NCBI RefSeq assembly: GCF_044704955.1 | Contig: NC_091980.1 | Location: 7,130,001-7,194,000, forward strand | From: Pristiophorus japonicus | Lineage: Eukaryota | DNA length: 64,000 nt | Reading direction: 5' to 3' | Shown: positions 57,183 to 64,000 of the stretch, in pieces | Numbering within the stretch: position 1 is the first letter of the stretch | How the letters are laid out: every line of letters begins with the position of its first letter | The notes under the pieces: generated by a model | Seen by the model: only the letters and a program-made list of their open reading frames with translations | Databases searched by the model: none | Told to the model about the DNA's origin: nothing | Program-made: the position numbers and the translations under genes

Positions 57183-57313
57183 AAGAAATTATAATGGAGA
57201 ATAAGGACATGGCAGAGAAATTAAACAATTACTTTGTGTCTGTCTTCACGGAAGACTCAAAAAACATCCCGGAAATAGTGGAGAACCAAGGGTCTAGCGA
57301 GAGTGATGAACTG
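57183..57313 (+). mobile_element. CR1 fragment that is the ERV integration target
   Basis: Encodes KDMAEKLNNYFVSVFT.ED, homologous to 51000-51126; ends abruptly at the LTR TG. Confidence 0.8.
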
Positions 57314-57775
57314 TGTGGAAGAGAGAAACTATGAACACCTGGCTTAATTTAGAGGGAAGGGTTAAATTCTGTTTTTTTTGCTATGCTTAAAGAAATAATA
57401 AGACTAGAAAAATAGCCACGCTTTTTAGCCTTGAAACTTACAGATGCAATTAAATGACCATCTGGTATTAAAAGGGAGTCTCCTTTTGATTCTGCTTATT
57501 AGGCTGTGAACAGAGAAAAACTATGCAAGGACAGATAGAGTGTGCACCTCCCGAGACGACCTTTGTACTCGCGGGACTAATGAATAAGATTCTTTTCTAT
57601 TTCTGTATTCAATTTCTGTATAAAGATAAGTGCAATTTGCTTGTACGACAGAGTTTTGCCTTGGTACGGTCCAAGCAGGCTCTCCGAGATATATCTTGCT
57701 TTTTAAAATAAATTCTCTCGAAGTGCAGTTCTGAAAGTCTCCGCCTGAGTTAATTTAAGCTATATTTCCTCGACA
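57314..57775 (+). repeat. ERV 5' LTR (~460 bp)
   Basis: Starts TGTGGAAGAGA exactly where CR1 homology stops and ends TTTCCTCGACA (imperfect inverted termini, TG...CA). TATAAA at 57619-57624, AATAAA at 57707-57712, PBS 5 nt downstream. Confidence 0.82.
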
Positions 57776-57780
57776 GATTC

Positions 57781-57799
57781 TGGCGTAGTCCGGCAGGAT
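57781..57799 (+). promoter_or_regulatory. Primer binding site, tRNA-Ser (AGA/TGA type), with a 1-nt insertion
   Basis: TGGCGTAGTC(C)GGCAGGAT is the reverse complement of the vertebrate tRNA-Ser 3' end ATCCTGCCGACTACGCCA plus one extra C. Confidence 0.85.
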
Positions 57800-58117
57800 C
57801 TCTAAAAAAAAACGAGATCCAAAAGAACTAAATTTAATTTTTAAAGAGAAAAGAGGAATTTTAAGGACTTTCCTAGCTGAAAGGAGGAAGGTGCCTAGGC
57901 CGTCCTAGCTGAAAGGGGGACGGGCCGCCGAGATCCCCGAGAGGGTGAGGCATAAGGTAGCTACCGCTAAGAAGCTAAAATAACAAAAAGGCAAAAGGAG
58001 ACCCCGAGCTGAGCAGAAAAGAGAACACCGGTGAGCGCTTTGTAAATTATTGTATATTTTGTAGGATTGTCCTAACTCTCATTTCAGAAAAGATCGCGAG
58101 ACGTTGCACCCGGAAGA

Positions 58118-59168
58118 ATGGGAAACGGCTCTAGTCGAGCCGGGCGCTCGCGCCCAGCTCCTAGAAAAGGAAAGAAGGACGACCTCTCAACTGAAAGAAT
58201 GAGAAAAGAATCAGTAAGGTAGTAAAGCAACGAGAGAAGGTAGGAGATCCCATTGTGCCGCCCGGCTCGCCGGCGGACACTGTAATTAAAGAAACAGGAG
58301 ACGACAGATACGCGGTAACGTTTAGTAGCGATTTGTACGGTTGGTCTGATGGGGATTGGCCATATGGAGGAAGTTTTAAATTGTCCTTAATTGAAGAATG
58401 GAGACAGACCACCAAAAATGGGACAGGGGACCCCAGTTGGGATAAAGATTATATGGAGAATTGTTTTAAAAAATAAAAAGAAAGAGGAGGAGGGTAAGGA
58501 GAAGCCCCCTCCCTCTTACAGCCCCCAAGTGCCCCAGTTTTGACCGCTTCGCCTGTCGGCTTATACCCCCGTCTTCCAACCACCAAGCCGGATGATTGGC
58601 AGGAGATTATAGAAATAGTGGCCGCTCAGCTGGATAAGACAGGCCGATTCCTCCACTACCCCCACGACACAAGCCCCCGTGTAATGATCAGAACAACGGC
58701 TGTCCTAAAGCCCTGGACACCGGGAGAAGCTCGGGATATGATATCAGCTGCCCCTAATCCTGTTAAGAAGCCAGTAGCCTTTCACAACTGGCTTGAGCAA
58801 ACCTGTACCATTTATTAAAGGGAGCTAAAAAGCATGGAGATATAGGGGAAGTCACCCGCTGCTTGCAGAAAGCAGAAGAATAGATTTTGCAGGCAGATGG
58901 AAAAATAGTTGGGACGAGCATGCAGGAATACCAATGGATCAAAATGAACCTTTGGCAGTGCAAACCTTGTTAAATTGTATGTTGCCACAACAAGCAAGAA
59001 CATACAAAATAAGGGTTTTGGACTGGCAAGGAAAAAGTTGGAAAGAGACAGTTACAGTACTGGCTAACATGGATAGAGAGGGACTATTTTCCTATAAGGA
59101 AAATATGGCTAAAACAGGTCAGTAAATCAGCAAAAGGGACGAGGACAGGCACAGAATAATCAGCATAG
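58118..59168 (+). pseudogene. gag: ERV gag (disrupted, internally deleted)
   Basis: MGNGSS myristoylation start; matrix WPYGGSF motif; late domains PPSY, PSAP and LYPRL; capsid-like KPWTPGEARDM...PNPVKKP. Several stops and frameshifts, no CCHC knuckle, terminal TAG at 59166-59168. Confidence 0.82.
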
Positions 59169-59540
59169 GGATGCCCCGGAGGCTTAGTGGTACAGGCGGC
59201 AGCCCTCCGCTTATCGGCAGACATAGAAGAAAACCCTCTGGCAGTAGTAAAAGTAGGAGACACTTATGTAAAGTTCCTGGTGGATACCGGTGCTACTATG
59301 TCTTCTGTACCACCCTCTGTGGGATTACCTGTAAGCAACACCACCGTCTTAAGTATGGGTGTGGCCGGTATCCCCATGAAATAATTTTTATCTGAACCTA
59401 CCAAATTGATAATTGAAGGACAATCAGTTAATGATGAGACTTTGATAGTCTCTAAAACAACACCGCTCCCTTTATTGGGAAGACAGACTTTGTGCAAACT
59501 AGGAGCCACAATTTATTGCACAAAGGAAGGAATGTACATG
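59169..59540 (+). pseudogene. pro: ERV aspartic protease, in frame after the gag UAG
   Basis: TAG-GGA-TGC-CCC readthrough-type context; FLVDTGATMS active site (59283-59291); LLGRQTLCKL flap/C-terminal motif; premature TAA at 59382-59384. Confidence 0.9.
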
Positions 59541-59619
59541 GAGCTCCCTCCAAATAATATTCATCAGTTCTTTAATGGGATTAAAAAAGAGAAAAGGGAG
59601 GATAACAAAGAAAAGGCTG

Positions 59620-60150
59620 CCCTCTATTGTTGGCAATTGATTGGCAACTACTATTCCCTCTTGATACATGAAGTTATACAAAACTTAAAAGCTAAATTTG
59701 ACCCTAATACTGAAGAATTGATGTATATAATTTTGACAAGCTTTGAGACAGTTCAGCTTCACTGTACAGCCTGGTACACTCGACAAAAGGCTGAAACTTA
59801 CCAGTGTTTGGTACAATCCTTTTTAAATAGAGAAGAAATAGTAGAAGCTACGCTCCGCATTTATTTTGGACCAGAAGGATTGGGGGTAGCCATTGATTTG
59901 ACACCCTTACAGCAACAGCGGTTTAGAGAAGCGAACTCGACACCTCATCTGACCTTGGCTATAAAACCGCCAGCGAAACCTAAAGATATGGGTCCGATGA
60001 TTGTAGGAATAGAAAGAGAAAAACAGCAACACGGCTATCAACCTTGGGCAGTAATAAAATTGCAAAATGTTCAGATAGAATTTATCACCCACAACAGGGG
60101 GATTCTCCAGTGGAAAGGTAAAAATCATGCCTCCACTTTTGAAAAACAGC
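59620..60150 (+). CDS. 2H-phosphoesterase (CNPase-like) domain embedded in pol between protease and RT
   Basis: LHCTAWY (His at 59760) and STPHLTLA (His at 59946): two HxT motifs 62 aa apart, followed by PKDMGPM. The frame is open across the domain. Confidence 0.8.
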
Positions 60151-60169
60151 AACCCCCGGAACAACCAAG

Positions 60170-62797
60170 CCCTAAGCTGCCAATGGCATTGAATCAAGTA
60201 TCTTCTGAACTTTGGGCAAAGCATAAGAATCATGTTGGGCAAGTACATTCTGCAGTACCCCATCGGGTACAATTGATAAAGAACGCCGTGTTACCAAGCA
60301 TTAGGCAGTGCAGACTGCCTCCAGAGGCAGAAAATGGGATAGAGCCAGTCATTTCTGCATTGTTGGAACAAGGAGTTCTAGAAAAGACACAGAGCCCGTG
60401 TAACACTCCGATACTGCCCATACCAAAGGTTAATAGGCCGAATGAATGGAGATTTGTGCAAGATCTGAGAGCTAGTAATAAGATAGTCGTCCTATCACCC
60501 CTGTGGTACCGGACACCAACATTATACTATCTGCTATACCACCAACAGCAACTGTCTTTACTGTGATAGACCTGTGTTCAGCTTTTTACTCTATCCCGTT
60601 AAATCAAGAAAGTCAGTATCTGTTTGCTTTCACCCACAAGAAGCAGCAGTACACATGGACCAGGTTGCCCCAAGGATACACCGAAAGCCCCGCAGTATTT
60701 GCAACAGCAGTACTAACCCAAGAACATGGTGGGGGAAATAGACCAGTTGCTTATTATTCGGTTTTGCTGCCTCCAGTAGTAAGGGGAATGCCAGCATGTC
60801 TACGTGCTGTAGCTGCTACTGCGGTCATGGTGGAAAAGTCGGTACCTATTGTTTTGGATCATCCATGTACTGTCATTACAGCCCATGCTGTCTTATTACT
60901 TTTGAATTCAGCTGCCACACAACACTTTACAGCATCTCGAAGAACAGGTTATGAAGTATTACTGCTGTCACACCCTAACTATATCTTTCGACGTGCACCG
61001 GTAGTGAACCCAGCCACCTTTCTTCCTACTAAAGAAGTAGAGGATCCAGACCAGCATGATTGTCTGTTAACGGTGGAAGTAGCCACCTTACCAAGACCAG
61101 ATTTGCTCACAGAACCCATGGACAATCCTGATCTTATTCTCTATACGGATGGATCATCACATAGGCCGTCGGATGATTTGTTTTTGGCAGGCTATGCTAT
61201 TGTAAATCCCTACAAAACTGTTGAAGCATTCGCCCTGCCTCCTGGAACCTCGGCTCAGGCTGCTGAATTGTTTGCCCTCACTAGAGCTTGTATAATAGCT
61301 AAAGATCATACTGCTAATATCTATACTGATTCTCGATATGCATTCGGTGTGGTCCATGATTTTGGACAACTGTGGAAAAACAGAGGCTTTATCACCTCTG
61401 GTGGAAAGCAGATTAAGCACTCACAACTGGTGCTTAATCTATTAGACGCCATTCAGTTGCCAAGTAAGGTAGCCGTTATCAAATGTGCAGCTCACACAAC
61501 CGGTGATGATGAAGTATCAGTAGGAAATAGGAGGGCTGACGAGGCAGCCAAACAGGCCGCTTCGGCACAGGCAGACTGCCTTCAAGCAGTCTCGGTTTCC
61601 CCTCCACAGGTACTTGACATCCAACAACTTAAAACAGCCCAACAACAAGTTACCATGCAGGAAGGAAGAACTTGGGAAAACCAGGGTTGTTTTCTAAAAA
61701 ACGACATTTGGTATCACCCTGATGGGCGAACTGTTTGTCCTAGATCTCTATTTTTGCCCCTGTCTCGCCTAGCACACGGTCAGGCTCACATGGGCAAAGG
61801 AGGGATGATACATGCTATCAATGCACAATGGTATGCACCAGGAATAACAGTAGTAATTGAGAAAGTTGCTAGGACATGCCAAATTTGTCAGCAAAATAAC
61901 AGAGGTAAAACACCTGCTGAATATGATCATCTACCCCAACCAAGTATGCCCTTTGAAAATTTGCAAATTGACTTTGTCCACATGCCTCCAGTATCAGGTC
62001 TTAAGTATCTATTAGTCATAGTAGATATGTTCACAAGGTGGGTAGAAGCGTACGCCACTAGGAGAGACGATGCCCGAACAGTAGTAAAAATTCTATTTAA
62101 AGAAATAGTACCAAGATATGGGATACCTATGGGAATCAACAGTGACAGGGGAACCCACTTCACCGGAAAAATAGTGCAAAACCTTGCAGAAGCGTTAGGG
62201 TTCCAGTGGAAGTTACATGTACCATATCAACCACAGTCCTCGGGAATGGTAGAAAGAGTAAATGGGATAATAAAATCTACCCTTACCAAGGTATGTCAGG
62301 AGACTGGACTGAAGTGGCCAGAAGCCTTACCATTAGTATTGTATATAATAAGAAACCAGAAAAACCGAAACACTGATTTGACACCACATGAAGCCTTATT
62401 GGGAAGACCAATGCTTACTGGCGTAAAACCACCACTGACAGATGAAAAAATAGCATTAATTTGGAATGATGAAAAATCACTAAAGTATGCTCAGGCCATG
62501 TGTGAAATAGCAAGAAGGCTGCATGAACAAATAAAGCAGACACAGGTGCCCCCGTCGGAAGGAAAAATGCACCCTTTCAGACCTGGAGATCAAGTGTTAG
62601 TAAAAACATTAAATAAAGAATCTTTTTCTCCTAGGTGGAAAGGACCGTATCAGATAATTCTCATGACACGAACCGCGTTGAAGTTGTAAAAGCACCCGAA
62701 CTGGGTGCATGCAACCCGCTGTAAATATTATTTCCCCGACGAATTACAGCCGAAGGAAAAGGCATTGAACCTGGACAAGCTGCGGTCGCCCGACTAA
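60170..62797 (+). pseudogene. pol: ERV pol: truncated RT (YxDD/thumb deleted), tether, RNase H, integrase
   Basis: RT motifs SPCNTPILP, WRFVQDLR, IDLCSAF and LPQGYTESP are followed directly by tether VLTQ...RPVAYYS. RNase H motifs YTDGS, SAQAAEL, YTDSRY, GNRRAD. Integrase HHCC, D(61970)-D(62144)-x35-E(62252), WKGPY and WVHA. Frameshift at about 60491, premature TAA at 62687, native stop at 62795-62797. Confidence 0.93.
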
Positions 62798-62885
62798 GAA
62801 AACAACCATCTTCTCGCTGAAGAACTGTACCTGCTCTTGTATTAAATATTTGGACTTGAAAATATTGCCCAAAATTCACGGACGA

Positions 62886-63041
62886 ATGTCAGAGTTCATT
62901 TGTGTGCCAGTTTGGGCCTTTATTATTTGGGTCACTGTTACTATCGTGTGGACGTGTTGTTATTGTAACGACTTATTTCAAGAGTGGTATAGAAACAAAC
63001 AAGAAAGGGAAGATGGGAAGGGACTCTTGGAAAAATTATAA
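62886..63041 (+). CDS. Small single-pass membrane ORF (51 aa) between pol and env; candidate accessory protein
   Basis: MSEFICVPVWAFIIWVTVTIVWTCCYCNDLFQEWYRNKQEREDGKGLLEKL*: N-terminal hydrophobic stretch, Cys cluster and charged tail; overlaps the env ATG. Confidence 0.5.
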   Translation: MSEFICVPVWAFIIWVTVTIVWTCCYCNDLFQEWYRNKQEREDGKGLLEKL

Positions 63042-64000
63042 ATGGGCGATGGGTATACTGATCATTTTAGCAACATGGAAATCCCGGCAGGAGGAAGAAG
63101 TCCTAAAAGAAGGAAGAGTATGGAAGGGAAATATGGTATGGGAAAGAAGTAATAGTATAAGGCAGCAAGACAATTTTATATGCCCAGCAGGCCAAAGTTG
63201 TAAAGTAGGGAATTTTACGGCACGATGTGAGGTGTGTGGAATGAAGGAAGAAAAAGGGGAGTTCCAGTTTATATTGGGGAAAGGGTATCAGTTGTTCATA
63301 GAATACCAGGCCGATGTGTGGATGAAGTGTACCTGGAGCACAAAGAAAAACAAGAGATGGGGGTACATAGGAGGGCCGGACGAGAGAAAAGACTTCCTCC
63401 GTTATTCATTTACAGGTATGGAAGATGGGCAGCGGATGTTGTTCATGAATAACACCCCGGTGAATGGAGGAAACCCATTTGTGGTAAAATGGTCAGTAAA
63501 AGAATCCGGCCACCCAGAAGACCGGGACCCGGGACATCTAAAAAGGATACTGACCACTTGCATCCCAGTGGTAAGATCCCCAGGTGTATTAAATCTAACA
63601 ATACGAATTAAATATCCCCCAAAGAAAGAAGATGGTTGCCACACAACCAGTATTAAGGTATCTTTTGAAAAAGAAAGACCCCAAAGAAAGAAACGGGATG
63701 TGTTAGGGACTGTGTTAGGTGGAGTGGGAGCAGGAATAGGAGCATTGAACTCCATGGATATCGAGACCCTACAAAATAAAATCCAGGCCGTCGGAGGACT
63801 GGTAGGGGAAGATATAAAAATCAGAAATGCCTGGGATGAAGGATTACAACAATTACAGATATCAGGTTACATCATAAACGAAATGACGGGGCAACAGAAT
63901 GAAGGGATAGAGAAGGAAATAGAGAACCTAATGAAAGAACAACAGGGAGTAAACAGGGAGAAATGATCAGACAGCTATTAAGAGCTGAGTTAGAAAGGAA
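63013..64000 (+). pseudogene. env: ERV env (SU and start of TM; frameshift near 63960; truncated by the window)
   Basis: Strong-context ATG at 63013; hydrophobic signal WAMGILIILATW; CEVC; furin site RKKR (63685-63696) followed by a Gly-rich fusion peptide DVLGTVLGGVGAGIGALNS and a heptad-like segment. TGA at 63964-63966, with another frame continuing (MIRQLLRAELER). Confidence 0.88.

Follow-up and report, generated by a model that had tools for sequence, protein, structure and literature searches.

Does the interval between pol and env in an endogenous retrovirus (ERV) of the sawshark Pristiophorus japonicus carry a small gene of its own? Within the window, that is, the whole stretch of 64,000 nucleotides analysed here and numbered from its first letter, a sequence-only reading had pointed to a 51-residue open reading frame (ORF) just upstream of env and likened it to vpu of HIV-1. 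We examine below the ORF and the provirus around it, the message that would carry it, the RNA structure predicted over the same bases, and the other copies of the family.

The ORF and its provirus

The last 6.7 kb of the window are a broken provirus. It was inserted in a LINE-like repeat, and the features that can be recognized in it are the following.

57314..57775, + strand: 5' LTR, TG...CA, with a TATA box at 57619 and AATAAA at 57707; the host repeat ends at 57313
57781..57799, + strand: primer binding site, tRNA-Ser-like
58118..59125, + strand: gag, in pieces; no Pfam match
59169..62798, + strand: pro-pol, broken; Pfam matches to RVP, RVT_1, RNase_H, rve and MLVIN_C
62886..63041, + strand: 51-aa ORF, from ATG 62886 to TAA 63041; predicted membrane helix, CCYC, amphipathic helix and charged tail
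63013..63966, + strand: env, with signal h-region, SU, RKKR cleavage site and fusion peptide; broken near 63959 and cut by the window end

The ends of the LTR are approximate because the 3' LTR lies outside the window, and the primer binding site at 57781..57799 is one that we take to be complementary to tRNA-Ser. Pro-pol is damaged by stops or frame changes near 59384 and at 60500-60560, by a gap near 60700 and by a stop at 62687-62689; its integrase-like frame runs to 62798. Between protease and reverse transcriptase (~59560-60100) about 200 residues are inserted that have no Pfam match and contain two HxT motifs, as in 2H phosphoesterases. CNPase ORFs are described in fish epsilon-like ERVs, according to a review (PMC4977317). 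The host flank (1-57200) contains many LINE and SINE fragments and minisatellites with units of 33, 34 and 36 nt; no second copy of the ERV was found in it.

In a Pol tree of 16 rows, 11 rows form a gamma-type group (98/99) that does not include the element, which stands next to three epsilon-type rows (85/78, on a long branch). The tree leaves out L008 (which has no long frame), L014-L018 and L022, as well as the broken reverse transcriptase of the element itself; the names gamma and WDSV for the comparison rows are our own assignments, presumed from their sequences. By this tree and the MLVIN_C match, we class the element as an epsilon-like class I (gamma/epsilon-like) ERV.

Its Env shares 42% identity with the protein P0001 and 81-94% with proteins labelled Pristiophorus japonicus. 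By language-model features it resembles the F protein of paramyxoviruses or baculoviruses (0.93; PF00523 on 32% of cluster members). No Pfam family matches it above cut-off, and tblastn gave no match between it and the Env of gamma, epsilon or snakehead viruses. Like env read from 63013, P0001 opens with a short signal, its start being the one set by a gene caller. Another protein, P0006, starts at a Met just after the stop of the 51-aa ORF; the frame is therefore closed upstream in that copy too, a weak indication.

The ORF itself is as the earlier reading had it. Its best 19-residue Kyte-Doolittle mean (KD19) is 2.27, over residues 4-22, which matches the claimed hydrophobic segment of ~19 residues. 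The juxtamembrane CCYC is found at residues 24-27, and D42-G-K-G-L46-L47, a DxxxLL motif, at residues 42-47 in the charged tail. The ORF overlaps env (ATG 63013) by 29 nt in a different frame, and the contexts of the two starts read as stated, weak for the ORF (cgaATGt) and strong for env (aagATGg). A single-sequence AlphaFold model consists of one long helix (pLDDT 89); it contributes little to the case, and together with the hydrophobicity it yields a single predicted membrane helix. By prediction, the peptide is small and hydrophobic and has one membrane helix or more.

Only three residues precede this helix, leaving no ectodomain, and residue 2 is Ser. A polar face is all but absent from the helix, where the hydrophobic moment does not exceed 0.15, and none of the 19 membrane codons has an A at codon position 2. 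An amphipathic helix is predicted at residues 26-37 (hydrophobic moment 0.64 at residues 26-36). The tail has five K/R and six D/E, with a net charge of -1, and no polybasic patch follows the helix. A prediction of a four-copy complex scored 0.02 and is readable neither way. The DxxxLL motif lies entirely within the env overlap, and its Asp codon is formed by the env start context. By chance, [DE]xxxL[LI] occurs in 3-7% of 29-aa windows taken from pol and off-frames, and in 0% of env windows. As evidence, the dileucine motif is weak.

How often would such an ORF arise by chance? In 20,000 dinucleotide shuffles of the pol-env gap, an ATG ORF of 45-150 aa outside the env frame appears in 8%; one of that size with a KD19 of at least 2.27 appears in 0.045%. 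When the T-rich patch is held in place, the hydrophobic ORF arises in 0.8% of 50,000 shuffles. With two cysteines beside the helix, the frequency is 0.005% in the gap shuffles and 0.1% with the patch fixed. In the host flank, 5 of 229 ORFs of 40-150 aa attain a KD19 of 2.27, and the element itself has seven ATG ORFs of 40-150 aa on its plus strand, of which the one studied here is alone in exceeding 1. No other 81 nt of the element are as rich in T over A as the patch in question (62899-62979), and the env frame that covers these bases is hydrophobic as well (KD19 1.86), which makes two of the three frames hydrophobic there. As a feature of the sequence, the 51-aa ORF is real, better than chance and in a suggestive place; as a gene, it is unproven.

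Splicing and the order of start codons

Other copies of the ERV were viewed through the contigs of four runs (X1, X2, X3 and X7) out of 13, from two studies; the small shares of runs X8-X13 were left out of the contig comparison. X1 is a DNA run. X2, X3 and X7 carry no recorded kind and are probably RNA, because GT..AG joints are present in them and absent from X1. Differences between copies were read from the best 40 of 1,095 substitutions, the best 12 of 97 indels and the best 15 of 28 joints; the depth of a contig is a rough measure and gives no copy number. The following features bear on the env message.

58031..58032, + strand: leader splice donor; the exon ends at 58030; GT..AG joint in one X7 contig, loose ends in X3 and X7
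58240..58241, + strand: second donor, in 5' gag, joined to the acceptor at 62633-62634; one X2 contig with a shorter side of 24 letters, weak
62633..62634, + strand: env-message splice acceptor; the exon starts at 62635; joints in X7 and X2, loose ends in X3 and X7
62709..62768, + strand: 19-codon upstream ORF (uORF), in weak context, in frame with the 51-aa ORF and within the 3' end of the pol frame

A leader donor, CCG/GTGAGC, had been proposed at ~58031, and a GT..AG joint ending at 58030 in X7 confirms it. This joint, 58030/62635, is in one X7 contig at a depth of 82.7. Loose ends that carry the last bases of the leader at 62634 are found in one contig of X3 and two of X7, and in none of the DNA run X1 (~72% read). 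The joint 58239/62635 of X2 uses the same AG at 62633-62634; seen in that one contig, it would yield a short Gag N-terminal product ahead of the 51-aa ORF.

The acceptor first proposed, ttacAG at 62748-62749, has to be replaced, at least as the main site. Both GT..AG joints seen (X7 and X2) use the AG at 62633-62634, which stands behind a much better pyrimidine tract. The expected splice from 58030 to 62750 is likewise not the one observed: the donor joins 62635 instead, and no joint to 62750 is found among the best 15 of 28 joints in the contigs of X1, X2, X3 and X7. With this correction, 62886 is no longer the first ATG after the acceptor, since 62663 and 62709 precede it on the message spliced to 62635.

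The first exon has no ATG downstream of the TATA box. On the 62635-spliced message the order of AUGs is 62663, which is not common to other copies, then 62709 (weak), 62886 (weak) and 63013 (strong). Most other copies do not have the second in-frame ATG of env, at 63049, and 63013 is therefore the likely env start. The succession of a weak ORF AUG and a strong env AUG survives the change of acceptor. The splice upstream of the 51-aa ORF is partly shown, from a handful of contigs, and the ORF is likely on the same singly spliced message as env. The bicistronic arrangement put forward by analogy with vpu/env, a small membrane ORF on a spliced env message with a weak and then a strong AUG, agrees with these observations.

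RNA structure, copies and competing readings

The bases of the ORF are also predicted to be part of a large RNA fold.

62794..63030, + strand: predicted RNA structure, closed and multibranched, that extends across the entire pol-env gap; pair probabilities 0.83-1.0

In this fold, the env AUG lies in 63007-63016, the partner of 62806-62815, and the amphipathic helix is encoded by 62979-62992, the partner of 62825-62839. The AUG of the 51-aa ORF is in an inner hairpin, 62853-62933, together with half the codons of the membrane segment. The same helices recur in a 466-nt context, where the overall z is only -0.85; windows of 150 nt across the gap score z close to 0, so that the fold is purely long-range. 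We set aside shunting of ribosomes past the stem, as the env AUG is inside the 3' arm of the stem. Further structured RNA windows, with z from -2.9 to -4.2, were noted at 62550-62720 (env acceptor), 61230-61590 (RNase H) and 58830-59070 (before the gag-pro junction).

The alternative that survives best follows from this fold. The gap would be a cis-acting RNA element for export or translation control, of the CTE/RTE type; the ORF would be incidental, or a regulatory uORF that damps Env, and the peptide a by-product of a U/G-rich stem arm. We regard it as a serious possibility, and on balance a doubtful one. The structure takes in the gap with hardly a base to spare, running from where the pol frame ends to slightly beyond the env AUG. 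It is predicted to be stable (-67.7 kcal/mol, z -3.29, with 0 of 200 shuffles as good; smaller reruns gave z -3.82 and -2.77), and its z-score and ensemble spread are the best and the lowest, respectively, of 54 windows along the element, on a grid that was phased on the gap window. Its outer arms, picked after the fold, reach -36.3 kcal/mol against -19.0 +/- 3.3 in shuffles (0/2,000). An RTE near the 3' LTR of mouse IAP elements provides a precedent (PMC2674570), and two of the three frames over the patch are hydrophobic. The one indel found inside the ORF, at codon 23, hits none of the strong helices; its site is a hairpin of low probability.

Several results weigh on the other side. The z-score is unexceptional, because 3 of 13 other retroviral genomes also have z < -2 just ahead of env. 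The gap structure has no Rfam match, 33 of 300 random synonymous versions of the ORF fold as well as its actual codons, and holding the T-rich patch in place still yields an ORF of this kind in <1% of shuffles. The stem would independently account for the U/G-rich patch, so that the argument from hydrophobicity is weakened, not removed. By these models the gap is probably of dual use, as an ORF and as an RNA domain that holds both AUGs.

Other copies of the element are represented in the four runs by thousands of contigs, with identities from <90% to >99%; their number and spread point to a large multi-copy ERV family. Among the best 40 of 1,095 substitutions, one is inside the 51-aa ORF, at codon 4, and it is conservative. 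Among the best 12 of 97 indels there is also one, the loss of one base at codon 23. The depth of this frameshift is 762 of 28,393 in the DNA run X1, 58 of 464 in X2, 127 of 1,002 in X3 and 1,193 of 1,940 in X7. By frame arithmetic, the hydrophobic segment of such copies (codons 1-22) runs into the env frame, which is stop-free over 62860-63012 and thereby open for 51 codons upstream of the env ATG.

These copies are the main ground for a second alternative, which we consider improbable. The hydrophobic segment would belong to a long Env leader, with two hydrophobic stretches around a basic loop, as in the arenavirus stable signal peptide or the foamy leader peptide, and the free 51-aa ORF would be its frameshifted form. 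Frameshifted copies are present in all four runs, with a larger share of the depth in the probable RNA runs. The likeness of Env to paramyxovirus F is relevant as well, for foamy Env shares this link and has a leader peptide (PMC11468914). However, ~97% of the DNA depth is without the frameshift, env has a strong AUG and a signal h-region of its own, and P0001 starts with its short signal. Moreover, a HMMER search over all lengths found no long protein that begins with the hydrophobic segment. The sequence-only reading had itself allowed that the ORF might be lost from other copies or turn out to be a piece of a longer env leader; this holds in part, for the minority of copies that are frameshifted into the env frame, and not for most of the DNA depth. 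The majority form keeps a separate 51-aa ORF, and a sub-lineage has lost its tail or gained a long Env leader.

Rearranged copies were seen too. In X7, the joints 62838-62896 and 62838-62953 skip or replace 62839-62895 and 62839-62952, that is, the ATG or the membrane segment. One X7 contig, with a depth of 776, passes from the ORF stop at 63041 to later env (63959) and represents an internally deleted copy that keeps the ORF; another leaves at 62876 for mid-env, an internally deleted copy that loses it. A loose end in X7 (62949-62958, two contigs, 10 letters) may come from a diverged copy in which codons 22-23 change and the frame and cysteines are kept; it is too short to weigh.

The search for relatives of the 51-aa ORF gave none in Pfam or PDB (E up to 1 and 10), none in a protein word-index search and no genuine one with HMMER over 1.84 billion representatives, where the matches P0004 and P0005 were rejected as translations of tandem repeats. 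Foldseek of the peptide on viral models (BFVD) gave 0 matches, and the best ESM Atlas result (0.77, recognition 1879) is below the mark. Scans of viral, metagenome and genome contigs with Env or integrase found nothing. A 19-nt pattern has five matches in metagenomes, none longer than 26 nt when extended, and these were rejected; so were L023 and L024, which are chance matches of 12 residues, and L022 is unrelated. In a literature search whose scope excluded subscription papers (for example, the original snakehead, salmon and zebrafish retrovirus papers), the ORF is nowhere described, and the available text of five papers on shark, fish and amphibian ERVs mentions nothing like it (PMC4422223, PMC4977317, PMC3185748, PMC12690878, PMC13517186). 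These results fit the earlier description of the ORF as analogous, not homologous, to vpu. Missing homologues are expected for a eukaryotic viral ORF of 51 aa, yet they lend no support.

Coronavirus E and reovirus p10 are of comparable size, with a single helix and juxtamembrane cysteines, and the 51-aa peptide recalls them in all three respects. Small single-pass proteins are reported in LTR elements, some of them downstream of pol (PMC11952523), and Vpu itself forms cation channels (PMC8402909). Still, that the ORF is a real gene whose product forms an oligomeric ion channel, as viroporins do, or is a small fusogen of the FAST type, and not a trafficking cofactor, is very unlikely: unlike FAST proteins and Drosophila MDG1 sORF2, the peptide has no N-terminal Gly or myristoylation motif, no ectodomain and no polybasic region after the helix; at 51 aa it is shorter than the sORF2 range of 63-107 aa (PMC11952523); its helix is almost without a polar face; and the element keeps its own Env, which makes a fusogen unneeded. 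The predicted shape apart, the viroporin label has no support of its own.

Comparison with vpu and a possible mechanism

The pol-env gap of the element is 214 nt long. Among 13 gamma, epsilon or snakehead genomes used for comparison, pol and env overlap in 10 and are separated by 16-66 nt in three, and in none of them did we find a small hydrophobic ORF at the junction.

The closest parallel is HIV-1. There, a weak vpu AUG ahead of env permits leaky scanning, with a short uORF ahead (PMC2657110). Vpu is a protein of 81 aa in which an N-terminal helix is followed by an amphipathic helix, with a [DE]xxxL[LIV] motif and a DSGxxS degron for beta-TrCP (PMC8402909, PMC2657110). The 51-aa ORF would similarly encode a small signal-less membrane protein upstream of and overlapping env, with a weak AUG and a short uORF ahead, and its peptide is predicted to have the same single N-terminal helix, the amphipathic helix and the [DE]xxxL[LIV] motif. 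In contrast to Vpu, it has 51 residues and not 81, no DSGxxS, and a Cys cluster in place of the basic hinge, and there is no sequence similarity; its viral backbone is of the class I fish type and not lentiviral.

EIAV S2 also lies in the pol-env gap and overlaps env. It is an accessory protein of ~7 kDa whose ExxxLL is required for the removal of SERINC5 (10.1101/065078). An acidic dileucine occurs in S2 and, as the weak motif described above, in the 51-aa ORF; S2, however, is myristoylated on Gly2 and has no membrane helix, whereas the ORF has Ser2 and a helix, and its acidic residue is an Asp encoded in the env start context. Judged by its layout and outline the ORF appears Vpu-like, and it is a member of neither the Vpu nor the EIAV S2 family.

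WDSV and WEHV have their accessory genes before gag or after env; the Pol proteins of these epsilonretroviruses and of epsilon-like fish ERVs group with that of the element. L021, a WDSV-sized genome, has overlapping pol and env genes, lacks a small membrane ORF at that place and gave no tblastn match to the Env described here. Epsilon-like ERVs are known from the elephant shark as well (PMC4422223).

Snakehead retrovirus is reported to have small ORFs on sub-genomic mRNAs and a 205-aa 3'ORF (PMC12193657), and L012 (10,688 nt) carries a 205-aa 3'ORF as described for it. The snakehead ORF1, with 52 aa, is similar in size to the 51-aa ORF, but L012 has just 16 nt between pol and env, no such ATG ORF in them, and no similarity to the peptide. 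A placement of ORF1 at the pol-env junction was therefore rejected. Teleost foamy-like ERVs do have pol-env accessory ORFs under purifying selection; they share the location, but are large (1.2-1.3 kb), of class III and described as devoid of membrane segments (PMC5210030). The same 2016 survey presents a pol-env ORF as unique among infectious fish retroviruses (PMC5210030).

Taken with the comparisons above, we lean, if only slightly, towards the 51-aa ORF being a real gene, with a plausible accessory membrane peptide made from a bicistronic env mRNA. Its expression might proceed as follows. A 5' exon that lacks any ATG beyond the TATA box, spliced from 58030 to 62635 as seen in the contigs, would present ribosomes with the weak uORF at 62709, the weak start at 62886 and the strong env start at 63013. 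Some ribosomes would begin at 62886 and most would continue to env, as in HIV-1 vpu/env. The peptide is predicted to insert without a signal sequence, N out and C in; cysteines 24, 25 and 27 may be acylated at the inner face, followed by the membrane-hugging amphipathic helix and the short tail. The same bases would meanwhile fold into the one RNA domain that holds both AUGs. By analogy with Vpu and S2, the helix could bind a host membrane protein and DxxxLL could hand it to clathrin adaptors, a speculative step that we think unlikely.

The sequence anatomy, the splice joints and the differences between copies are observations, and the helix and the RNA fold are predictions; we infer, and in part speculate on, the translation, palmitoylation, topology and target of the peptide. 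An accessory ORF read by leaky scanning from a dual-use gap and encoding a single-pass acylated trafficking cofactor of the secretory pathway is a reading that we doubt slightly more than we believe. Its most far-reaching form would have a class I cartilaginous-fish retrovirus evolve the vpu/env design independently, with a palmitoylated helix peptide that strips a surface restriction factor, an RNA stem that couples both outputs and a sub-lineage that fuses the helix to the Env leader; we hold this form improbable as a whole.

Lentiviruses are known to carry small membrane accessory genes on the env message; the fish retroviruses examined have none at the pol-env junction. If the ORF is not a gene, the gap would still be an undescribed structured RNA element, predicted to sequester the env start. 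If it is a true gene, the vpu/env design would have arisen once more, this time in a class I shark virus, and the host protein targeted by the peptide would lead to an ancient membrane restriction factor of cartilaginous fish, similar to SERINC or tetherin.
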